Origin: a virus
Taxonomy: Duplodnaviria; Heunggongvirae; Uroviricota; Caudoviricetes
Virus record (IMG/VR): IMGVR_UViG_2778261346_000012
Direction: 5' to 3' (one strand)
DNA length: 10,598 nucleotides
In this document: piece after piece, positions 1 through 10,598 of the stretch
How positions within the stretch are numbered: position 1 is the first letter of the stretch
How the letters are laid out: every line of letters starts with the position of its first letter
Program-made: the position numbers and the translations under genes
The notes under the pieces: model-generated
The model's database searches: none
What the model was told of the DNA's origin: nothing
Seen by the model: only the letters and a program-made list of their open reading frames with translations

Positions 1-1164
1 ATGGCTCTAACCGATATACAAATCAAACGCGCAAAACCACAAGACAAACCATATACATTGAATGATGGGCAAGGCTTGTCATTACTCATCAACCCAGACG
101 GCTCAAAGGGATGGCGCTTCCGTTTTCGTTTTGCAGGCAAAGCGCGGCTAATGTCATTTGGTAGTTATGATCTTGTAAGCCTCGCGGAAGCACGTGAGAA
201 ACGCGATACGGCACGTAAACAGGTTGCAAACGGCATTGACCCAGTAGAAGAACGTAAGGCTCAGAAACTTGCTCAGAAATTATCAACTGAAAACTCTTTT
301 GAGGCCGTTAGCAGAGAATGGTATGCAGCAAAAGCAGACCGCTGGACAGTTGCCTATCGCGAAGAAATCATTAGGACGTTTGAACATGATGTTTTTCCTT
401 TTATTGGTAAACGACCAATATCTGAAATTAAACCGCTAGAGTTGCTTGAAGTACTTAAGCGTATAGAAAAACGTGGGGCATTGGAGAAAACAAGAAAAGT
501 ACGACAAAGATGCGGAGAAGTGTTTCGTTACGCGATCATCACTGGCCGCGCTGAATACAACCCGGCACCTGATTTAGCTATAGCGTTAGCCGCTCCAAAG
601 CAAAAACATCATCCTTTTCTCACTGCAGAAGAATTACCTTACTTCGTCAGAGATCTTGAAGCTTACACGGGCAGTATCATCACTAAAAATGCGACCAAGA
701 TTGTGATGCTTACAGGTGTAAGAACACAGGAAATGCGCTTTGCCACTTGGGAAGAAGTTGATTTAGAAAAAGGGATATGGGAAATACCTGCAGAACGTAT
801 GAAAATGCGTCGTCCTCACCTTGTCCCTTTGTCAACGCAGGTAATCGATCTTTTCAACCAACTAAAACCAATTACAGGACACTACCCATACATCTTCATA
901 GGAAGGAACAACCGCAGAAAACCTATCAGTAAGGAAAGTGTAAATCAAGTAATTGAACTCCTCGGGTATAAAGGAAGAGTTACAGGACACGGTTTTAGAC
1001 ATAGTTTATCGACAATCTTGCATGAGAAAGGCTATAACAGCAATTGGATAGAGCTACAACTAGCACATGTTGATAAAAACAGCATAAGAGGCACTTACAA
1101 CCATGCACAGTACCTCTTACAACGGAAAGAAATGCTTCAGTGGTATGCTGATTTTTTAATGTAA
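1..1164 (+). CDS. int: P4-type tyrosine integrase (site-specific recombinase)
   Basis: 387-aa ORF with ATG start and TAA stop. N-terminus MALTDIQIKRAKPQDKPYTLNDGQGLSLLINPDGSKGWRFRFRF is typical of the P4 integrase arm-binding domain. C-terminal catalytic signatures: GHGFRHSLST (H-x-x-R) and RGTYNHAQY (tyrosine nucleophile). Confidence 0.95.
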   Translation: MALTDIQIKRAKPQDKPYTLNDGQGLSLLINPDGSKGWRFRFRFAGKARLMSFGSYDLVSLAEAREKRDTARKQVANGIDPVEERKAQKLAQKLSTENSFEAVSREWYAAKADRWTVAYREEIIRTFEHDVFPFIGKRPISEIKPLELLEVLKRIEKRGALEKTRKVRQRCGEVFRYAIITGRAEYNPAPDLAIALAAPKQKHHPFLTAEELPYFVRDLEAYTGSIITKNATKIVMLTGVRTQEMRFATWEEVDLEKGIWEIPAERMKMRRPHLVPLSTQVIDLFNQLKPITGHYPYIFIGRNNRRKPISKESVNQVIELLGYKGRVTGHGFRHSLSTILHEKGYNSNWIELQLAHVDKNSIRGTYNHAQYLLQRKEMLQWYADFLM

Positions 1165-1173
1165 GGAGAAAAT

Positions 1174-3045
1174 ATGACTTATTTTACTAACACAGCAGTA
1201 AATATCGAAGGAAACAGAAAGTTAAGAACTCCTCAAATCGAGGCCTATATAAAAATAAGGGAGTTTTTCAGCGACCCTGAGCACCGTGAAGCTCTTGTGA
1301 TTCTACCTACAGGCACAGGTAAAAGTGGGTTAATTTCTATTGCACCATACGGTGTATCTCAAAAAAGAGTTTTGATTATTACACCAGGTCTTGTTACCAA
1401 AGATAGTATTAGAAAGACACAAGAAGTATTAGAAGATAACTTTTGGATAAATTATGACATTGTCTTCAGCAGTAAAGATATTCCTGTAGTTAGTGAATAT
1501 ACACCAGATATATCTTCTGAACACTTAGAACAAAGCCACATTATATTTTCTAATATACAACGTATATCTGGAAATAGAAAAAGCGCACTAATTAATAGAG
1601 TTCCAGAAGATTTCTTTGATTTTATTATCGTTGATGAAGCACATCATGCACCAGCCCAAAGCTGGCGTGATGCTCTTAAATATTTCTCTAAAGCAAAAGT
1701 TTTACATGTCACAGGAACCCCTTATCGTGGTGATGCTCAAGAAATCCCGGGAGAAATAATTCATGAAACACCATTGTCAGAAGTGATGAGAGCAAAATAT
1801 GTAAAATGGTTAAGAAAAGAAACTGTTAATGCTCATGAGTTGTACTTCACAACTCCAGATATACCTAACAAAAAACTAACTAAAGAAGATATTTTAGAAT
1901 TTAAAGATAAAGAATGGATTGAAAAAAGCATTGCCCTATCTCCGGAGTGTTCAAATGATGTGATTGAGCATAGTATTTTAAAACTAAATATACTTAAAGA
2001 AGCATCACCTAAAGTCCCACATAAAATTCTCGCTGTAGGATGTAGCATTACTCATGCCGAAGATCTAGCTAAATGGTATGAAGCAAAAGGTCTACGTGTA
2101 GTTATAATTCATAGTGAAATGGATGATGAAGTAAAAGCAGACGCTTTCCTTAACATTGAAAATCATAACGCCGATGTTGTTATATCGGTAAATATGTTAA
2201 TGGAGGGCTATGACCATAAGTATTTAAGCATTTTGGCAATCTTCAGACCTTACAGGAGCCTTAATGCATTTGCTCAAGTTGTTGGCAGAATTCTACGTGC
2301 GATTCCTGAAAACGAGATTACTGCATTTGAAATAGATAATAATGGAATTGTGATTTTTCATGAAGAAATTGGATTAAATCCAATGTGGGAAAAATTCCAG
2401 AGCGAAGTAGATAGAGCCAAAAGAACCATCAATCGAGAATATACATTTACTGATGATTATTATAGAGAAAGAGAAAACTTTTTGGCTGGTGTCGCAAGTG
2501 ATGGGGCTTACGTCAGTGATCAAGATTCTTATTTAGAAGATGTTGATTTTAACTCTTTATTCGAAGAAAAAAGAGCTGAAATAAACAAAAAAGTTGATGA
2601 ACAATTAGAAATATTCAGGAAGGCAAGTCTTGATGCAGGATTAACGTTACCTGATGACACTCTGAAATTGTTTAAAAGAGACTTAATTGAACAAGAATCT
2701 AGGAAAGCTGCTGGAGAAATAGATCAAGATCTAGTAGAAAAAAGGCCGCATCTTGCTCGTAAAAAAATGAGAGAGATCTTAACCGCTAAGATTAAAGAAG
2801 AGGCTTCTAACCTTCTGATAATAAATGGCCTCGATGAGAAAGGACAAGAACTGCAACCTATTTTTTCACCACATCTTAGGAATCTACAGACAACCGATGC
2901 AAATGATGCTATTATTGTAAAATTCATTTTGGGTAAATTGTATAGACAGTTTGGTCCTGTAAAAGATCGAGACAACCAAACTTTACAGAACTCAATTAAT
3001 TCAATACCTGAGATCTTAGCTGAAGTGTCGAGGATGTTAAAATGA
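1174..3045 (+). CDS. SF2 DEAD/DEAH-box (ResIII-like) helicase-family protein with ~240-aa C-terminal extension of unknown function; candidate defence protein
   Basis: 623-aa ORF. AGGAG RBS at 1164-1168, ATG at 1174, 9 bp after the int stop. Helicase motifs in order: PTGTGKSG (Walker A / motif I), IIVDEAHH (DEAH, motif II), VTGTP (motif III), SVNMLMEGYD (motif V-like), QVVGRILR (motif VI). C-terminal third is charged and low-complexity with no nuclease or other motif I recognise. AT-rich codon usage unlike the satellite core. Confidence 0.9.
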   Translation: MTYFTNTAVNIEGNRKLRTPQIEAYIKIREFFSDPEHREALVILPTGTGKSGLISIAPYGVSQKRVLIITPGLVTKDSIRKTQEVLEDNFWINYDIVFSSKDIPVVSEYTPDISSEHLEQSHIIFSNIQRISGNRKSALINRVPEDFFDFIIVDEAHHAPAQSWRDALKYFSKAKVLHVTGTPYRGDAQEIPGEIIHETPLSEVMRAKYVKWLRKETVNAHELYFTTPDIPNKKLTKEDILEFKDKEWIEKSIALSPECSNDVIEHSILKLNILKEASPKVPHKILAVGCSITHAEDLAKWYEAKGLRVVIIHSEMDDEVKADAFLNIENHNADVVISVNMLMEGYDHKYLSILAIFRPYRSLNAFAQVVGRILRAIPENEITAFEIDNNGIVIFHEEIGLNPMWEKFQSEVDRAKRTINREYTFTDDYYRERENFLAGVASDGAYVSDQDSYLEDVDFNSLFEEKRAEINKKVDEQLEIFRKASLDAGLTLPDDTLKLFKRDLIEQESRKAAGEIDQDLVEKRPHLARKKMREILTAKIKEEASNLLIINGLDEKGQELQPIFSPHLRNLQTTDANDAIIVKFILGKLYRQFGPVKDRDNQTLQNSINSIPEILAEVSRMLK

Positions 3046-3464
3046 TTAATGTAGCTCAAATTTTGAAAAATTTAGCTGCCTTTTGTTCAGTCAAGGGAGT
3101 TCAACCTGATGAACTTGTGACCGCTATATTTGAAAAAGAATATAAAAAAATTGAAACATACAAGGTCAATTGTCTTATTTATTTCATCATGGATTACTCC
3201 GAAAAAATTGATGATGATGAAACATTTATTTCTATGCGTTATATTTATGACGAGAATAAATCACTTATAAAAATAGAACAAAAGCTAAACAATGGACGTT
3301 ATCATACCCAGTGGGACAGAAATGACGCACTGAAGAAATATATAATAAATCAACTTTCTGAACTTCCATATCAGAAAAGAGACGAGGTCTATCAGACAAT
3401 TTTAGAAAATATACCTATTGATGCAAGTTACTCCTTACCTCCAAGGCTAAAGCTTGTTAGCTAA
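3042..3464 (+). CDS. Hypothetical 140-aa protein, translationally coupled partner of the helicase
   Basis: ATG at 3042 overlaps the helicase TGA stop (ATGA, 3042-3045). GAGGA RBS at 3030-3034. Same AT-rich composition. Followed directly by an intrinsic terminator. No motif recognised by eye. Confidence 0.75.
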   Translation: MINVAQILKNLAAFCSVKGVQPDELVTAIFEKEYKKIETYKVNCLIYFIMDYSEKIDDDETFISMRYIYDENKSLIKIEQKLNNGRYHTQWDRNDALKKYIINQLSELPYQKRDEVYQTILENIPIDASYSLPPRLKLVS

Positions 3465-3479
3465 GTTATAATTTCACTG

Positions 3480-3504
3480 AAGGCACCATTTGGTGCCTTT
3501 TTTT
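3480..3504 (+). terminator. Rho-independent terminator of the int-helicase-partner operon
   Basis: Stem AAGGCACC (3480-3487), loop ATTT, stem GGTGCCTT (3492-3499), merging into a 7-T run (3498-3504). Lies 16 bp after the 3464 stop. Confidence 0.75.
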
Positions 3505-3591
3505 CAATGCAAATATATCCAAACTCAATGTAATCTATAAAAACCGTTTTACCTCCACATTATGAATAATATAAATATACACTGGCGCGCA

Positions 3592-3610
3592 GTGCTTTCC
3601 CCGCCTCGCC
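3592..3610 (-). other. cos: cos site: 19-nt P2/P4 cohesive-end sequence
   Basis: Plus strand reads GTGCTTTCCCCGCCTCGCC, the reverse complement of GGCGAGGCGGGGAAAGCAC, which I recall as the P2/P4 cohesive end. The extended reverse complement GGCGAGGCGGGGAAAGCACTGCGCGC matches my memory of the P2 genome left end. Sits between the cargo and psu, as in P4. Confidence 0.8.
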
Positions 3611-3713
3611 CGCCCGCTTTGCAGGGCGGTTTTAATGCAGTTGCACAGTCACGCTCAGGCTGCGCCGGGAATGGCGCGGTCTGCAGAAAATGAGGCAGGA
3701 AAACGCATGCAAA

Positions 3714-3744
3714 GCCATGCACCTTATCGATGCATGGCTTTTTT
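3714..3744. terminator. Terminator-like hairpin between cos and psu; orientation ambiguous, possibly bidirectional
   Basis: Perfect 8-bp stem GCCATGCA (3714-3721) / TGCATGGC (3731-3738), 9-nt loop, then TTTTTT (3739-3744) on the plus strand. On the minus strand the same hairpin is followed only by TTTGCAT, so termination of psu here is weaker. Confidence 0.5.
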
Positions 3745-3774
3745 CAGTAAAAACGGGCGGATTTTCGGGGAATT

Positions 3775-4347
3775 TTACACAGACTGACGTGATGCCAGTT
3801 GCGCACTTTTACGCGAAAAAATCATGTTCTGCGCAGGGGTGAATTTTTCACGGCTGTCATCCACAGAAGCCGCGTCAGGCCTGAATCCGATAGTCGTTAA
3901 AATGTCGCTATCCTGTGCGGAATAATTAATTTTTTCACCCTTCGCAAGCCAGGACAGGAGGGCTTCACGCAGGGCATCTGTGGCACGCTGTATGGCACAG
4001 TTTCGGGCAATGACCGTCAGCTCACTGTAGCCCATCAGCTCCGGTGCCAGTGCCGCCGCCAGTGCTGTGCCGTGCTGCTGCATAAAATCATTCAGCCGGT
4101 CGCGGATGCTGATGTGCTGAACGGCTTCATGCGAACGAATATAACGACCGGCGGCCTGATTCACCTGCCATTTTCTGACTTCGATAATATTGCGTAATTC
4201 GTCCAGGCGGCTGACGTTTCTGCCTTCTCCTGACAGAAGCCGCAGATATTCCTGTTCGGCCGCTGCCAGCTCATTTTTGCGTTGCAGCCATGCTGCTTTG
4301 TTATTCTGACAGGTGTCAAAGGCCTGCTGTAAGGCTGTGCTTTCCAT
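3775..4347 (-). CDS. psu: Psu, polarity suppression protein (Rho antagonist / capsid decoration)
   Basis: 190-aa ORF, ATG start. Sequence MESTALQQAFDTCQNNKAAWLQRKNELAAAEQEYLRLL... matches my memory of P4 Psu in both sequence and length. Last gene of the sid-delta-psu operon, next to cos. Confidence 0.93.
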   Translation of the reverse strand: MESTALQQAFDTCQNNKAAWLQRKNELAAAEQEYLRLLSGEGRNVSRLDELRNIIEVRKWQVNQAAGRYIRSHEAVQHISIRDRLNDFMQQHGTALAAALAPELMGYSELTVIARNCAIQRATDALREALLSWLAKGEKINYSAQDSDILTTIGFRPDAASVDDSREKFTPAQNMIFSRKSAQLASRQSV

Positions 4348-4420
4348 CGTTATCTCTTTCTCATCATGCTGAAGAATAAAAATACGGTGTGCGGCGACGG
4401 CCGGGGTTAACCGGCAGCCT

Positions 4421-4921
4421 TCATTCCAGACGCAGCGAATATGATTGTGTTTTTAACCGTACTGGCGGCAGTTCCTGTTTTTCATGCAGGCGTTCTGCCA
4501 GTTCGTCCGGCGTGACCGGGCGGACAATGAAGCGGGTGATGGTCTGAAGCGTTTTAAACACCAGACCACAGCCCGGATCCGTGCACACATAAAAACGCTC
4601 GGTGACTTCCTGAGACAGACGCCGCGATGTTCTTGACAGTGCAAGGCCTTTACATCTCCGACAACAATATCCGGTAACAAGCATTCTTTTCGGGCGTTTC
4701 ATACTGCCGGAGGCTGACGTCAGTGAATCGCGGTATCTCTGTTTGCCTGAAATGTATTCCATTCCTGAATCTTTACAGTCAGAGAAAAAGCTTTCACTCG
4801 CTTCAAATGTCGCAGAGCAATAAATATTCCGGCACTGTGCAATCATTATCTTGGTGCCATCGTCCATGAAATGTGCGCGACGGGTGTGAGCAACATGTCC
4901 ACACGACGGGCAGTAAATCAT
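4421..4921 (-). CDS. delta: Delta, late-gene transcriptional activator (tandem Ogr-like zinc-finger domains)
   Basis: Chosen start is the internal ATG at 4921-4919 (MIYCPSCGH...), giving 166 aa, the P4 Delta length. It overlaps the sid TGA stop (ATGA) and has a GAGGA RBS about 10 nt upstream. The ORF-track start at 4978 is a GTG that would overlap sid by 60 nt. Two Ogr-like Cys clusters are present: CPSCGH...C..C and CCRRC...C..C. Confidence 0.88.
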   Translation of the reverse strand: MIYCPSCGHVAHTRRAHFMDDGTKIMIAQCRNIYCSATFEASESFFSDCKDSGMEYISGKQRYRDSLTSASGSMKRPKRMLVTGYCCRRCKGLALSRTSRRLSQEVTERFYVCTDPGCGLVFKTLQTITRFIVRPVTPDELAERLHEKQELPPVRLKTQSYSLRLE

Positions 4922-5652
4922 GACAGCAGTCCTCTGGCCTTCAGCTCTGCTCCCTGCTGGTCTATTTTGTCCTGCCACACCTTGCGCTGTGCCGGTGTGC
5001 CTGCCACCTCATAATCCATGTGCGGAAGTGTTGCCGCTGACAGTCCGGTCAGCCGGAGAACCGGCTCACCGGTGAGGCTGATTTGCATCTGTTTAATTTT
5101 CTGTTCCAGCGATGATTTCACCTGCTGCATGACAGCCTTTTCCGGTGCGACATAGCCCTGATGGCCGGTGGTGTTGGCGAGCGGATTTTCCTGTACCAGG
5201 ATGCTCAGATGCATTGCCCGGACAAGCGCCTCACAGGTTTCATTCAGGGCGTGTTCCAGCTCATGCTCTGCATACAGACTCAGAAGATGATGATGTGCCT
5301 TCCGGTAGGCGGTGGCCGTGCTGTCACACGCCCCTTTCAGGCGTTCACGTTCAAAATTCAGCACCACGGCCAGATTGTCATATTCCTGTACCAGCTCCCG
5401 GCGTGCCACGCGCTCAATGTGGCGCTGTTTCAGCTCGTCGCTCAGGACACCACCGGCTGCACGAAAGGCCGTGCGCCAGTCGTCAGCATCGTTTCCGTCG
5501 GCCTGCGTCAGCGCATTTTTTTCCTGCTCTGCCCGTTCAATGGCCGTGACGGTCTCATCCATCAGGCGGGCGTTCTCAAGATGAGCGACTCTGGCCTTTT
5601 CCAGTTGTGCCAGTGCGGGTTGCAGATATTCAGGGATGGTGTTGTCAGACAT
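4918..5652 (-). CDS. sid: Sid, capsid size determination (external scaffold) protein
   Basis: Start taken at ATG 5652-5650 (MSDNTIPEYLQ...), giving 244 aa, the P4 Sid length. GAGGAG RBS 8 nt upstream. The ORF-track start at 5670 is an upstream in-frame GTG. Confidence 0.9.
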   Translation of the reverse strand: MSDNTIPEYLQPALAQLEKARVAHLENARLMDETVTAIERAEQEKNALTQADGNDADDWRTAFRAAGGVLSDELKQRHIERVARRELVQEYDNLAVVLNFERERLKGACDSTATAYRKAHHHLLSLYAEHELEHALNETCEALVRAMHLSILVQENPLANTTGHQGYVAPEKAVMQQVKSSLEQKIKQMQISLTGEPVLRLTGLSAATLPHMDYEVAGTPAQRKVWQDKIDQQGAELKARGLLS

Positions 5653-5686
5653 TTTCCGGCTCCTCGTCACTTCAGGTTAAGAAAAT

Positions 5687-5742
5687 TGTGACGTACACCG
5701 GACAACAACACGACGCATTGCAGATGTGCCAGCCCTGACACA
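5687..5742 (-). promoter_or_regulatory. Psid late promoter region with two TGT-N12-ACA activator (Delta/Ogr) binding dyads
   Basis: TGTGCCAGCCCTGACACA at 5725-5742 and TGTGACGTACACCGGACA at 5687-5704, both TGT-N12-ACA, centred 38 bp apart. If the distal dyad is at about -55 the TSS falls near 5678, some 26 nt upstream of the sid ATG. TGT-N12-ACA at -55 is the established P2/P4 late-promoter activator site. Confidence 0.6.
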
Positions 5743-5821
5743 GGAGACTCATCCTCAGACCGGCAAGCCAGGAAAAGGTCGCAGGAAAAACCGGCTTACT
5801 GTTTGTTTTTTTATATTTTAC

Positions 5822-5925
5822 TGTTCACCTCTGTTCACCTTAATAAAAAAGATAAGTAATACAGTAAGTTAAAGGGTGAACAATCGCAGTAATGACTGTT
5901 CACCGTCTGTTCACCACTGTTCACC
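5822..5925. repeat. ori: Origin of replication (ori): six TGTTCACC type-I iterons (alpha-binding octamers)
   Basis: TGTTCACC at 5822-5829, 5832-5839, 5897-5904, 5908-5915, 5918-5925, plus an inverted copy GGTGAACA at 5875-5882. Direct copies are spaced 10-11 bp apart. Flanked by very AT-rich DNA (5805-5820 and 5935-6030). From memory, P4 alpha binds TGTTCACC octamers in ori and crr. Confidence 0.75.
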
Positions 5926-6083
5926 CGTTGATGGGCTTTTTGTGCTGTTTATTACTTTTTATTTTTATTAATTCACTGAAATAAATAAGAAAAAACGATT
6001 TGTATTTCACTATAATTTTTTCCAGCTCCTTCCAGAGCGTTTTAAAGCTATCTGGCGCTGATGTACAAAAAACGCACAGCCAT

Positions 6084-6101
6084 TGTAAGGCTGCCGGAAC
6101 A
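6084..6101 (+). promoter_or_regulatory. PLL late promoter activator site (TGT-N12-ACA dyad)
   Basis: TGTAAGGCTGCCGGAACA at 6084-6101. If centred at -55 the TSS is near 6147, about 57 nt upstream of vis and about 395 bp upstream of the predicted PLE start. That fits the literature statement, as I recall it, that PLL lies about 400 nt upstream of PLE. Confidence 0.55.
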
Positions 6102-6203
6102 AATCCCCCCTGTTGCGTCTGCCAAAAATATTCACAAAATAAAGCGCTACCCGAAGCCGGACGGACTTATCCGGTGCTGTATGGACATTAACGAGGTAGC
6201 CCG

Positions 6204-6470
6204 ATGCAAGCTGTTTTTTCTTCCCCGTCTCCCGCCCCTGTGACGCCACTGATGCCGCTGCCGGACATCACGCAGGAGCGTTTTTTACGTCTGCCGGAAG
6301 TGATGCACCTGTGCGGCCTGTCACGCTCGACCATCTATGAACTCATCCGTAAGGGGGAATTTCCGCCGCAGGTGAGTCTTGGCGGTAAAAATGTGGCCTG
6401 GCTGCACTCTGAAGTCACCGCATGGATGGCCGGCCGCATTGCCGGACGCAAACGGGGGTATGACGCATGA
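6204..6470 (+). CDS. vis: Vis, AlpA-family helix-turn-helix regulator / excision factor (P4 orf88)
   Basis: 88-aa ORF, GAGG RBS 7 nt upstream of ATG 6204. AlpA-like core [30 protein letters not shown]. Stop overlaps the eta start (ATGA). Confidence 0.85.
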
Positions 6471-7066
6471 TGATGCCCGCTCTGCAAAAACTCCCTTTTT
6501 CTGGCTTGCCTTTTTCCGGCATTTGCGGATATAGTCTTTCCGTTGCCGCAAAATCGGCAGCCGGGCGTGAGAACCCGTGTAGCTCGAAGGCGACATATGA
6601 CGCGCCATGCGTCTTTTTTTGTGTCGCAATCAATGCCACAGAGCGCCAGATTATGGTGTGGTGTGTGGTCAGTCGTGCAGATGGCATTCCGTGCATCCTG
6701 CCTGCGTCCGCTCATTATGCCGCAGAGTCAATGGTAGCTCAGGCGGGGCAGCCTCCGGGCTGGCCGGTATTCTTCGAGGCCGGTATTCTCACCCCCGTCT
6801 GGGCTATCGCCATCGAGCGTGAGAACTCCGGCGATAGCAGTTATTTGCTACTCGAAGGAGGCTGCCTTATGGCTACAACCCTTACCCCCTCACACCCTGA
6901 ATTTGTCTTTGTGTTTGCGGCTGTCCGTCGCGCAGACCGTCATCCCCGTATCTGTATGCTTCGCACCGTCGCCGGTGATGAACGCAGTGCCCGCCGTTCC
7001 CTTGTCCGTGACTATGTGCTCTCCCTTGCTGCCCGTCTGCCGGTGGTGGAGGTGTCCCGTGCGTAA
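6467..7066 (+). CDS. eta: Eta (P4 orf199); reading frame spans PLE, the cI RNA region and the nested kil gene
   Basis: 199-codon ORF beginning with three consecutive ATGs (6467-6475). This fits my recollection of P4 eta as 197-199 aa with three candidate start codons. Whether the whole frame is translated is uncertain because an RNA gene and promoter lie inside it. Confidence 0.6.
6506..6535 (+). promoter_or_regulatory. PLE, candidate constitutive sigma70 early promoter
   Basis: -35 TTGCCT (6506-6511), 18-bp spacer, -10 TATAGT (6530-6535). Predicted TSS near 6542, just upstream of seqA. Confidence 0.5.
6565..6590 (+). promoter_or_regulatory. seqA-like immunity target in the PLE leader
   Basis: GCGTGAGAAC...CTCGAAGG. 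Both blocks are complementary to the seqB core inside the predicted CI RNA (CTTCGAG...TTCTCAC at 6772-6792) and recur at 6817-6858. Confidence 0.5.
6737..6804 (+). ncRNA. cI: CI immunity RNA (P4 cI / C4-type antisense RNA), boundaries approximate
   Basis: A 12-bp closing stem (GCTCAGGCGGGG 6737-6748 pairs with CCCCGTCTGGGC 6793-6804, including 2 G-U pairs) encloses about 44 nt that contain the seqB-like segment complementary to the upstream and downstream targets. About 68 nt, close to the ~69-nt size I recall for P4 CI RNA. Lies between PLE and kil as in P4. Confidence 0.5.
6817..6858 (+). promoter_or_regulatory. seqC-like immunity target overlapping the kil translation initiation region
   Basis: GCGTGAGAAC (6817-6826) and CTCGAAGG (6851-6858) repeat the seqA blocks. 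The second block overlaps the kil RBS AAGGAGG (6855-6861). Confidence 0.5.
6869..7066 (+). CDS. kil: Kil, 65-aa protein nested in-frame in the 3' end of eta
   Basis: In-frame ATG at 6869 with an AAGGAGG RBS 7 nt upstream gives exactly 65 codons to the shared TAA stop. Matches my recollection of P4 kil as a 65-aa product and the first translated gene downstream of PLE. Confidence 0.6.
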
Positions 7067-7346
7067 TAAAAAAGCCCCTCAGACCGTCTCAGCGCGTCAT
7101 GACGCCCGTGAACACCTCAGCATTGAGGCTTACCATAAGCTCAACCGCGCCAGCGCCGTATCCCAGTTTGTTGGGGGTGATTTGATTCACCGTGAACTCT
7201 CCGGCCTGCATCAGCTCTACATTCCGCATATTTTCAGCTACCTGAATGAAGATATTGATTTTGTGCTGAATGAACTGAAAGCCAAAGGCCTGTGCCGCGA
7301 TTTTCTCGCCCAGCAGAAAGACCGGGGAGACAGGACGCATGTTTGA
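7059..7346 (+). CDS. epsilon: Epsilon, helper-prophage derepressor (anti-repressor of the P2 C repressor)
   Basis: GTG start at 7059 with a GGAGG RBS (7048-7052) 6 nt upstream, overlapping the eta/kil stop. 95 codons to TGA 7344-7346, matching the ~95 aa I recall for P4 epsilon. The ORF-track frame extends upstream to 6819 but overlaps kil and lacks a convincing start there. Stop overlaps the orf151 ATG. Confidence 0.55.
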
Positions 7347-7794
7347 TTTTCCCCAGCCCGGTGAGATTTACCGTTCTGCCGGTTTTCCCGATGTGGCCGT
7401 GGTCGGCATTCTGGAAGACGGTATTCCGTGGGAAATGCCGTACCGCTGCCCGGAAATTGTCTGGAACCCGTACCGCCGTAAATTCAGTATCCTTGTGCGT
7501 ATCCTCGCTGACGGACGCACCACAGACATCCCGCTGGGGCGTTTTCTGCGGGAATTTACCTGTGACCGTCCTGACCTGTTTAAACGCAGCCCCGTAAACC
7601 GGCATGCGGTACTGAAAGAAATGGCCGGAGACCCGGAATTACAGAAATGGCGGGAAAAATATCTGGATATTTACCCGCAGGACACTGTTCCGGTCAGCCG
7701 GGCAGCACCGGTGGCGCGGGAATGGCGGGAAATTCCCCGCACGGAGCCTGACCCGGAAACCACCCCGGATAACAGTTACCGCAATTATCTGTAA
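7339..7794 (+). CDS. Conserved P4 left-operon protein (orf151 equivalent), function unknown
   Basis: 151-aa ORF, ATG start overlapping the epsilon stop. Size and position match P4 orf151 as I recall it. Confidence 0.75.
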   Translation: MFDFPQPGEIYRSAGFPDVAVVGILEDGIPWEMPYRCPEIVWNPYRRKFSILVRILADGRTTDIPLGRFLREFTCDRPDLFKRSPVNRHAVLKEMAGDPELQKWREKYLDIYPQDTVPVSRAAPVAREWREIPRTEPDPETTPDNSYRNYL

Positions 7795-7929
7795 TTAAAA
7801 AACGACCCCCGAAAAATTAAATGTGCGTATTCGCGCAGGGATACGCACGTCTTCAGGAGACGCAGATATGCCTTATCAGTTAATGCAACCGGCACGGAAT
7901 GCAGTCATCTGTCACAGGGAGAAAAGCAA

Positions 7930-8250
7930 ATGAAAACACCCTTACCGCCCGTCTTACGCGCTGCCCTTTACCGTCGCGCTGTCGCCTGTGCCTGGCTGAC
8001 CGTGTGCGAACGTCAGCACCGCTACCCGCATCTCACCCTTGAGTCACTGGAGGCGGCCATCGCCGCTGAGCTGGAAGGCTTTTATCTGCGCCAGCACGGT
8101 GAGGAAAAAGGGCGTCAGATAGCCTGTGCCCTGCTGGAAGATTTAATGGAATCCGGCCCCCTGAAGGCCGCGCCGTCGCTGTCCTTTCTCGGGCTGGTTG
8201 TGATGGATGAACTCTGTGCCCGTCACATAAAAGCGCCGGTACTGCACTGA
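7930..8250 (+). CDS. Conserved P4 left-operon protein (orf106 equivalent), function unknown
   Basis: 106-aa ORF, AGGGAG RBS 8 nt upstream of ATG 7930. Immediately upstream of alpha. Confidence 0.7.
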
Positions 8251-8264
8251 AGGAGAACAACACC

Positions 8265-10598
8265 ATGAAAATGAACGTAACCGCCACCGTCAGCCATGCG
8301 CTCGGCCACTGGCCGCGTATTCTCCCGGCGCTGGGGATTCAGGTGCTGAAAAACCGTCATCAGCCCTGTCCGGTCTGTGGCGGGAGTGACCGCTTCCGTT
8401 TTGATGACAGGGAGGGGCGCGGCACCTGGTACTGCAATCAGTGTGGTGCCGGTGACGGCCTGAAACTGGTTGAAAAGGTGTTTGGTGTTTCCCCGTCCGA
8501 CGCGGCCGCAAAGGTGGCTGCCGTGACCGGCAGCCTGCCCACGGCTGACCCGGCAGTGACGGCCGCCGCCGGCGCTGAAACAGACGCTGCCCGGAAGAAC
8601 GCCGCCGCACTGGCACAAACCCTGATGGCAAAAACCCGTCCCGGAACCGGTAACGCCTACCTGACCCGCAAGGGCTTTCCCGGCCGGGAATGCCGGATGC
8701 TGACCGGCACACACAGAGCCGGTGGCGTGAGCTGGCGCGCCGGTGACCTTGTGGTGCCACTGTATGACGACAGCGGCGAACTGGTTAACCTTCAGTTAAT
8801 CAGTGCTGACGGCCGTAAGCGCACCCTGAAAGGCGGACAGGTCAGGGGCACCTGTCACACCCTTGAAGGACAGAATCAGGCCGGAAAACGTCTGTGGATA
8901 GCGGAGGGATACGCGACCGCACTTACCGTACATCACCTGACCGGTGAAACGGTGATGGTGGCGCTTTCTTCCGTGAACCTCCTTTCTCTGGCCAGCCTTG
9001 CCCGGCAGAAGCATCCGGCCTGTCAGATTGTCCTTGCCGCAGACCGTGACCTCAGCGGTGACGGCCAGAAAAAAGCCGCCGCAGCCGCAGATGCGTGTGA
9101 GGGCGTTGTTGCCCTGCCGCCGGTCTTCGGTGACTGGAATGATGCCTTCACGCAGTACGGCGGGGAAGCCACCCGTAAGGCCATTTATGATGCCATCCGG
9201 CCACCGGCTGAAAGCCCGTTCGACACCATGAGCGAAGCGGAGTTTTCCGCCATGAGTACCAGCGAAAAGGCCATGCGTATCTATGAGCATTACGGCGAGG
9301 CGCTCGCGGTCGATGCCAACGGCCAGCTTCTGTCCCGCTATGAAAATGGTGTCTGGAAGGTGCTGCCGCCACAGGACTTTGCCCGGGATGTGGCCGGGCT
9401 GTTTCAGCGTCTGCGCGCGCCGTTCTCCTCCGGGAAAGTGGCCTCCGTGGTGGACACCCTGAAGCTGATTATTCCGCAGCAGGAAGCCCCCTCCCGCCGC
9501 CTGATTGGCTTTCGTAACGGCGTGCTCGACACGCAGAACGGCACGTTCCACCCGCACAGTCCGTCACACTGGATGCGCACCCTGTGCGATGTGGATTTCA
9601 CCCCGCCGGTGGACGGTGAAACGCTGGAGACCCACGCCCCCGCGTTCTGGCGCTGGCTTGACCGTGCCGCCGGTGGCCGTGCGGAAAAACGCGACGTGAT
9701 TCTGGCCGCACTGTTTATGGTGCTGGCAAACCGCTACGACTGGCAGCTCTTTCTGGAGGTGACCGGTCCCGGCGGCAGCGGCAAAAGTATCATGGCCGAA
9801 ATAGCCACCCTGCTGGCCGGGGAGGATAACGCCACGTCGGCCACCATTGAGACGCTGGAATCCCCGCGTGAACGTGCCGCGTTAACTGGCTTCTCACTGA
9901 TACGCCTGCCGGACCAGGAAAAATGGAGCGGCGACGGAGCCGGACTCAAGGCTATCACCGGCGGCGATGCGGTGTCCGTTGACCCGAAATACCGGGATGC
10001 GTACTCCACGCATATCCCGGCGGTGATTCTGGCCGTGAACAATAACCCGATGCGCTTCACCGACCGCAGCGGCGGCGTGTCACGCCGGCGGGTGATTATT
10101 CACTTCCCGGAACAGATAGCCCCGCAGGAGCGCGACCCGCAGCTTAAGGACAAAATCACCCGCGAGCTGGCGGTCATCGTGCGTCACCTGATGCAGAAGT
10201 TCAGCGACCCGATGCTCGCCCGGTCACTGCTTCAGTCCCAGCAGAACTCAGACGAGGCACTGAACATCAAACGGGATGCCGACCCGACGTTTGATTTTAT
10301 CGGCTATCTGGAAACCCTGCCGCAGACCAGCGGCATGTATATGGGGAACGCCAGTATCATCCCGCGTAATTACCGTAAATACCTCTATCACGCCTATCTG
10401 GCCTACATGGAGGCAAACGGCTACCGGAATGTACTCAGTCTGAAAATGTTCGGGCTGGGGCTGCCGGTGATGCTGAAGGAATACGGACTGAATTACGAGA
10501 AGCGCCATACCAAACAGGGGATACAGACCAACCTGACACTGAAAGAGGAAAGCTACGGCGACTGGCTGCCAAAATGTGACGCCCCTGCAACAACCTGA
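8265..10598 (+). CDS. alpha: Alpha, multifunctional primase-helicase replication protein
   Basis: 777-aa ORF, the P4 alpha length. AGGAG RBS 9 nt upstream. N-terminal zinc ribbon CPVCGGSDRFRFDD...YCNQCG. Primase/TOPRIM-like WIAEGYATALTV and LAADRDLSGDGQ. Walker A VTGPGGSGKS in the helicase domain. C-terminal region is expected to bind the iterons. Confidence 0.95.
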   Translation: MKMNVTATVSHALGHWPRILPALGIQVLKNRHQPCPVCGGSDRFRFDDREGRGTWYCNQCGAGDGLKLVEKVFGVSPSDAAAKVAAVTGSLPTADPAVTAAAGAETDAARKNAAALAQTLMAKTRPGTGNAYLTRKGFPGRECRMLTGTHRAGGVSWRAGDLVVPLYDDSGELVNLQLISADGRKRTLKGGQVRGTCHTLEGQNQAGKRLWIAEGYATALTVHHLTGETVMVALSSVNLLSLASLARQKHPACQIVLAADRDLSGDGQKKAAAAADACEGVVALPPVFGDWNDAFTQYGGEATRKAIYDAIRPPAESPFDTMSEAEFSAMSTSEKAMRIYEHYGEALAVDANGQLLSRYENGVWKVLPPQDFARDVAGLFQRLRAPFSSGKVASVVDTLKLIIPQQEAPSRRLIGFRNGVLDTQNGTFHPHSPSHWMRTLCDVDFTPPVDGETLETHAPAFWRWLDRAAGGRAEKRDVILAALFMVLANRYDWQLFLEVTGPGGSGKSIMAEIATLLAGEDNATSATIETLESPRERAALTGFSLIRLPDQEKWSGDGAGLKAITGGDAVSVDPKYRDAYSTHIPAVILAVNNNPMRFTDRSGGVSRRRVIIHFPEQIAPQERDPQLKDKITRELAVIVRHLMQKFSDPMLARSLLQSQQNSDEALNIKRDADPTFDFIGYLETLPQTSGMYMGNASIIPRNYRKYLYHAYLAYMEANGYRNVLSLKMFGLGLPVMLKEYGLNYEKRHTKQGIQTNLTLKEESYGDWLPKCDAPATT

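Follow-up and report, generated by a model that had tools for sequence, protein, structure and literature searches.

The stretch of DNA analysed here, 10,598 nt in its full length (in the following called the window), carries the genes psu, delta and sid, an ori region and the genes from vis to alpha in the order annotated in the deposited records of phage P4. By megablast, positions 3611-10598 are 98.0% identical to P4 (X51522 / NC_001609), which makes the window a P4-type satellite phage integrated as a prophage in E. coli. The part from 4900 to 6480 matches a prophage of E. coli O145 RM9872 at 100% identity, and a near-identical copy of it is present in about 1,000 of the 5,426 complete E. 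coli genomes.

We mapped the window by Pfam and the deposited P4 annotation. An integrase gene, truncated by the window edge, occupies positions 1-1164 and is followed by an open reading frame (ORF) of 623 amino acids resembling ResIII/DEAD helicases (1174-3045) and by an overlapping ORF of 140 amino acids without a Pfam match (3042-3464). Both ORFs are missing in P4. A stretch resembling the P2/P4 cos site lies near 3585-3651. The genes psu (3775-4347), delta (4421-4921) and sid (4918-5652) follow on the minus strand, and sid is the first gene of the sid-delta-psu operon read from the leftward late promoter Psid; it lies in the 98%-identical region, where the P4 record annotates sid with 244 amino acids. 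The delta gene encodes a tandem Ogr/Delta zinc-finger activator of 166 amino acids with two stretches matching PF04606. Beyond the ori repeats, which are located between sid and vis, the plus-strand gene vis or ORF88 (6204-6470; AlpA family according to Pfam Phage_AlpA and the P4 annotation) is the first gene downstream of the rightward late promoter PLL. The cI/ash region, epsilon, orf151 and orf106 separate it from alpha (8265-10598, plus strand).

The int-cos segment of the window (1-3610) is unlike that of P4, with the helicase-like and the 140-amino-acid ORFs standing where P4 has cII-beta-gop. In P4-like satellites this position is the known hotspot for cargo and defence genes.

Three exact TGT-N12-ACA elements lie between sid and vis, at 5687-5704 (TGTGACGTACACCGGACA), 5725-5742 (TGTGCCAGCCCTGACACA) and 6084-6101 (TGTAAGGCTGCCGGAACA). 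All three had been listed at these positions in a preliminary description made from the DNA letters, and the spacing of 38 bp given there for the two dyads next to sid agrees with their centre-to-centre distance. Two more exact matches, at 6578-6595 and 10575-10592, were absent from that description. Over the whole window, the 5 matches stand against an expectation of 2.44, which is not significant (17 of 200 shuffles yielded at least 5). Within the 551 bp of the sid-vis intergenic region, three dyads compare with 0.20 expected (P(≥3) = 0.0015; 20,000 dinucleotide shuffles), and the probability of at least one exact match there by chance is P(≥1) = 0.18. From this clustering we conclude that the three dyads are real and non-random, and the comparative evidence presented below is stronger.

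The two further matches were rejected as functional sites, one because it sits in the alpha coding sequence (10575) and the other because it is missing from P4 and falls within the isrK-like leader RNA of the early promoter PLE (6578). The latter dyad, TGTAGCTCGAAGGCGACA, is located inside this leader RNA (6542-6619), just before a terminator hairpin at 6599-6613. Similar 18-mers occupy the same position in two diverged satellites (L012 and L021). The 6578-6595 dyad is probably incidental to the RNA sequence.

At Psid, the dyads were placed relative to a predicted transcriptional start. Starts were set 7 nt past conserved hexamers of the form CA.AAT, for which reason the dyad positions may be off by a few bases. 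The predicted -10-like hexamer of Psid is CACAAT (5685-5690, minus strand; CA(C/G)AAT is invariant in 15 distinct sequences), which puts the start at about 5678, 26 nt ahead of the sid ATG at 5652. The distal activator site (5725-5742, minus strand; TGTGTCAGGGCTGGCACA on the sid-sense strand) is then centred at about -55.5, and the proximal dyad (5687-5704, minus strand; sid-sense TGTCCGGTGTACGTCACA) at about -17.5, with its right arm overlapping the -10-like hexamer. These values bear out the positions near -55 and -17 proposed earlier. An invariant TGTTGT (5705-5710, minus strand) spans about -29 to -24 if the TGT at 5702-5704, which forms the left arm of the proximal dyad, is included. In the alignment, the region from the start of sid to beyond the ori type 1 repeats, both Psid dyads included, is base-for-base identical to P4. 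The P4 record X02534 carries a '-10' annotation from 1984 (Lin) that corresponds to about 5734-5740 of the window. We rejected it as the -10 element of Psid since the distal dyad encloses it, and neither the conserved CA.AAT hexamer nor the -55 geometry can be reconciled with it.

On the other side of the intergenic region, the predicted -10-like hexamer of PLL is CAAAAT (6135-6140, plus strand), located within AAAATATTCACAAAATA, which is nearly invariant across genera. The corresponding start lies at about 6147, 57 nt ahead of the vis ATG at 6204, and the PLL distal activator site TGTAAGGCTGCCGGAACA (6084-6101, plus strand) is centred at about -54.5. This dyad is therefore placed correctly for a rightward promoter, as had been suggested. 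Its arms are identical to those in P4, and three substitutions, all in the 12-bp spacer, distinguish it from the P4 dyad (GGCTGCCGG vs GACAGCCTG in P4; TGTAAGGCTGCCGGAACA vs TGTAAGACAGCCTGAACA for the whole dyad). Between dyad and hexamer lies a further element of the form TGT-N12-AAA with one arm mismatch (TGTTGCGTCTGCCAAAAA; 6111-6128, plus strand; TGTTGC...AAAA), centred at about -27.5 of PLL; none of the 15 PLL sequences departs from its TGTTGC or from the AAAA downstream. PLL may have here either another activator site, of imperfect form, or a weak -35-like element.

A consensus scan of 5600-6700 yielded a single sigma-70 promoter, TTGCCT-18-TATAGT at 6506-6535 on the plus strand, and no consensus match at Psid or PLL, as expected if these two are activator-dependent. 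The match corresponds to the constitutive early promoter PLE. Its start near 6542 is supported by the agreement with the Rfam isrK-type RNA, which begins at 6542; the C4/CI immunity RNA follows at 6727-6814. X02534 annotates a '-10' at the place equivalent to PLE. From the predicted start of PLL to PLE, which lies downstream, the distance is about 395 bp, in line with the value of about 400 bp in the preliminary description.

Two features of the window border on the PLL dyad. At 6076-6094, the minus strand carries a terminator-like hairpin with a T-run behind it (GCAGCCTTACAATGGCTGT GCGTTTTTTG), which overlaps the dyad from the opposite strand. Read from the aligned sequences, the stem needs the spacer allele of the window, and the P4 sequence does not form it. 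Just upstream of the dyad, 6016-6070 is a hypervariable block of about 50 bp, with at least three unrelated alleles in P4-lineage copies that are otherwise at least 96% identical. The window allele (TTCCAGCTCCTTCCAGAGCGTTTTAAAGCTATCTGG...) stands where P4 has its 'ori type 2 repeats', and the reverse complement of the P4 allele contains TTAAAGTCA / TTAAAGCCA, which presumably resemble P2 Cox boxes. The block may be a helper-specific Cox/Apl input to PLL.

As a reference we used the late promoters of P2; for PP, PO, PV and PF, the RefSeq record of this phage lists both the activator-binding sites and the transcription starts. The best 18-mers at these promoters are centred at -55.5 (PO, PP), about -56.5 (PV) and -57.5 (PF) from the annotated starts. 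Much like Psid and PLL, the four P2 promoters combine a site centred at -55.5 to -57.5 and a left half resembling TGT(T)GTG with the lack of a -35 consensus, and PO shares TGTGTCAG, the left half of the distal Psid site, identically. They differ in having one site each, where Psid has a second, promoter-proximal dyad, and in being imperfect, with a right arm CCA or CAA where P4 has ACA. None of the four annotated P2 activator sites contains an exact TGT-N12-ACA (NC_001895, L003: 3057-3087, 10239-10266, 17555-17583), and P2 has its five exact matches elsewhere in the genome. Because the P2 sites are inexact, the exact motif is a peculiarity of P4, neither necessary nor sufficient as a diagnostic, and scanning for it is a poor way of detecting Ogr-dependent promoters.

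The promoters themselves are not new. Psid and PLL were reportedly mapped by Dale et al. in 1986 and Deho et al. in 1988, the distance from PLL to PLE downstream being about 400 nt. In 1995, Julien and Calendar reportedly footprinted Delta on all six late promoters of P2 and P4, each time at about -55, and at Psid additionally near -18. PMC3931495 gives TGT-N12-ACA as the consensus shared by the P2 late promoters that depend on Ogr, with reference to Christie & Calendar 1985 and Julien & Calendar 1995. According to PMC7552001 and PMC8628076, the P4 genes delta, psu and sid are activated in trans by Ogr; Delta, a homologue of Ogr, activates late genes of both P2 and P4, and the two proteins are interchangeable.

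For the comparison across satellites we assembled 20 Psid loci, comprising the window, P4, three E. coli satellites of about 70% identity and the loci obtained by scanning one genome per species with a Sid seed, 15 of these 16 loci having enough upstream sequence. A four-sequence Sid alignment served as the seed, an alignment of 22 sequences being too diverse. A word-indexed protein search with Delta returned only relatives of 84-100% identity, which were unusable for footprinting. Twelve alleles of the P4 lineage were aligned separately by anchor-based extraction. The genera in the set, about ten, include Escherichia, Klebsiella, Raoultella, Enterobacter, Citrobacter, Kluyvera, Mangrovibacter, Scandinavium, Tatumella and others.

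Anchored on the hexamer, 15 distinct Psid sequences align without gaps. Invariant among them are TGTG.CA....T..CACA (-64 to -47), TCG, TGTTGT (-29 to -24) and CA.AAT (-12 to -7). The distal site extends to TGTGYCA-N4-TGSCACA at -55.5; its four central bases vary freely (GGGC, TTTT, GAAC, TGAC), its distance to the hexamer is fixed, and its distance to sid does not vary either. Invariant arms, a variable centre and a fixed distance from the core promoter are the signature of a protein-binding dyad. The PLL core AAAATATTCACAAAATA, the leader and the TGTTGC at about -36 to -31 are essentially invariant across genera as well.

The satellites with a single-domain Delta (Klebsiella, Raoultella, Enterobacter, Citrobacter, Mangrovibacter) share the Psid spacing of the window, with the distal TGTGCCA-N4-TGCCACA at -55.5, then TGTTGT, then CAGAAT, as well as the nearly invariant PLL core. 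They differ in their Delta of 67-81 amino acids, in a proximal Psid element that reads TGT-N12-AGA at the identical position (CAGAAT for CACAAT), and in a PLL distal site of which only the left arm, cTGTTGTGTG, is kept, the right arm being degenerate much as in the P2 promoters. The perfect proximal Psid dyad and the exact PLL dyad were found only in P4-type sequence. Among the 12 P4-lineage alleles both Psid dyads are invariant, and the arms of the PLL dyad are invariant with three spacer alleles; two alleles of this lineage (L025, L031) depart from the TGTTGT element by a base change at position 5705 of the window. The conservation of the proximal right arm is confounded with that of the overlapping -10 hexamer. 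Compared with P4 itself (X51522 / X02534), the window represents the same element, sharing Psid, the PLL core and arms, the gene order and the tandem Delta. Apart from the int-cos cargo, the differences are the three PLL spacer substitutions and the unrelated allele of the upstream block of about 50 bp.

Satellites are mosaic around the delta/sid junction (L031/L032, NZ_CP007133.1 4412500-4422500; L033; L006). One mosaic type, present in about 160 complete E. coli genomes, joins sid and intergenic DNA of the P4 type to a single-domain Delta of 81 amino acids and another psu. L006 is the converse case: its Sid is only 30% identical to that of the window, and the matched intergenic parts (37% of the query) are about 78% identical.

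Taken together, the three dyads are very probably the activator-binding sites of two divergent activator-dependent late promoters of a P4-type satellite, in agreement with the earlier proposal of Delta/Ogr-dependent promoters Psid (leftward) and PLL (rightward). Psid is identical to that of P4, as are the arms and core of PLL. A dyad lies about 55 bp upstream of each predicted start (-55.5 for the distal Psid site, -54.5 for PLL), followed by the conserved -10-like hexamers CACAAT and CAAAAT without a -35 consensus, and the element encodes an Ogr/Delta activator (delta, PF04606). Half-sites are constrained in the distal Psid arms (15 sequences) and, for PLL, in both arms within the P4 lineage and in the left arm beyond it.

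A chance origin of the three motifs as matches to a degenerate six-base pattern would fit their insignificant number in the whole window and the incidental look of the two further matches, but it is contradicted by the intergenic clustering (P = 0.0015), by the conservation of position and arms across genera and by the identity to characterised P4 promoters, leaving it a negligible probability. The dyads might instead bind other P4 or helper proteins, such as alpha at ori, Vis or P2 Cox. Indeed, the alpha-binding repeats of the P4 ori in this region, TGTTCACC, give TGT-N12-ACA matches with one mismatch, and Cox activates a P4 promoter according to the P2 record. Yet none of the three exact dyads falls within the annotated ori repeats, their spacing to the -10-like hexamers is that of the annotated P2 activator sites, the left arm of the distal Psid site is that of P2 PO, and the candidate Cox-box block is separate, upstream of the PLL dyad. 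We consider binding of these proteins in place of Delta or Ogr extremely unlikely. The proximal Psid dyad alone might be no activator site at all, being conserved as core promoter (-10 hexamer plus TGTTGT) with a coincidental palindrome in P4. Its arms do lie inside invariant elements, the right one in CA.AAT and the left one in TGTTGT, the dyad is imperfect outside P4-type sequence, and one exact match in this region could readily arise by chance (P(≥1) = 0.18). Against this, TGTTGT is the typical left half-site of Ogr-type sites, as in P2 PO and PP (TGTTGTGT) and in the distal PLL arm cTGTTGTGTG of other satellites, and arms and spacing are invariant with a free spacer, the pattern of a protein-binding dyad. 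The Delta footprint reportedly seen by Julien and Calendar in 1995 near -18 of Psid also counts against a pure core promoter, and we judge this explanation unlikely.

The preliminary description had further suggested that the tandem Delta may contact both Psid dyads. Spelled out, a single Delta molecule would bridge the two dyads with one domain on each, and the two-dyad layout would be an adaptation to the tandem protein. Delta, which is 98-99% identical to its closest database homologues, does contain two Ogr-like domains, and both halves align to P2 Ogr. Among the first 20 loci, moreover, the tandem Delta of 166 amino acids occurs in P4-type elements only, all others encoding single-domain proteins of 67-81 amino acids, and the perfect proximal dyad across genera is likewise confined to the P4-type Psid. 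This co-occurrence, however, represents one evolutionary event in a single lineage, and it breaks down in the mosaics. At a coverage of at least 80%, the mosaic query is matched by about 160 of the 5,426 complete E. coli genomes, and in the two in which we read the dyads, RM12761 (E. coli O145:H28) and strain LD39-1, an intact Delta of 81 amino acids (WP_000984201.1) lies directly downstream of a P4-type sid, and Psid has both perfect dyads despite this single-domain Delta. A perfect proximal dyad is thus not restricted to elements with a tandem Delta. Other single-domain-Delta satellites keep a proximal element with five of six arm positions at exactly the same place, the dyad centres are 38 bp or about 130 Å apart, and four half-sites need four domains, so that two tandem Deltas would be required anyway. 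Psid also answers to the single-domain Ogr of the helper (PMC7552001). The bridging of both dyads by one tandem Delta is therefore unsupported and, in our view, very unlikely. At the level of sequence, the mosaics show that the second Psid dyad is independent of the tandem architecture of Delta.

The reading of the dyads as activator sites of two divergent late promoters leads to the following model. Psid would drive sid-delta-psu leftward, and PLL would drive vis and the replication operon rightward. With neither promoter predicted to have a usable -35 element, the helper's Ogr or the satellite's own Delta would bind the dyad about 55 bp upstream and recruit the E. coli RNA polymerase. Infection by a helper would thereby switch on capsid-size redirection (Sid, Psu), the production of more Delta in a positive feedback, and the late functions in replication and excision. 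With two half-sites per dyad, the most economical stoichiometry would be one activator per dyad, either a single tandem Delta or a dimer of a single-domain protein, with one zinc-finger domain per half-site. The proximal Psid dyad at -17.5 most likely binds a second activator molecule that would modulate the promoter, and the dyad is probably unnecessary for activation. Going further, one may speculate that the perfect proximal dyad is an innovation of the P4-type Psid that turned a vestigial half-site into a second operator, through which the activator level would feed back on sid-delta-psu, an idea we regard as doubtful. If true, the proximal operator could, for example, cap the autoactivation of Delta at high Delta/Ogr levels, whether Delta is tandem or single-domain.

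Since the Psid sequence is identical to that of P4, textbook elements worked out in the 1980s and 1990s have been correctly recognised here, and the discovery value of the finding is small overall. It illustrates that the regulatory logic of a classic satellite phage can be recovered by a reader of the sequence alone. To this well-understood system it adds small refinements, namely a footprint of the activator site across genera and the independence of the second Psid dyad from a tandem Delta. For the E. coli prophage itself, it shows that the late-promoter circuitry is intact and that the element could probably be mobilised by a P2-type helper.
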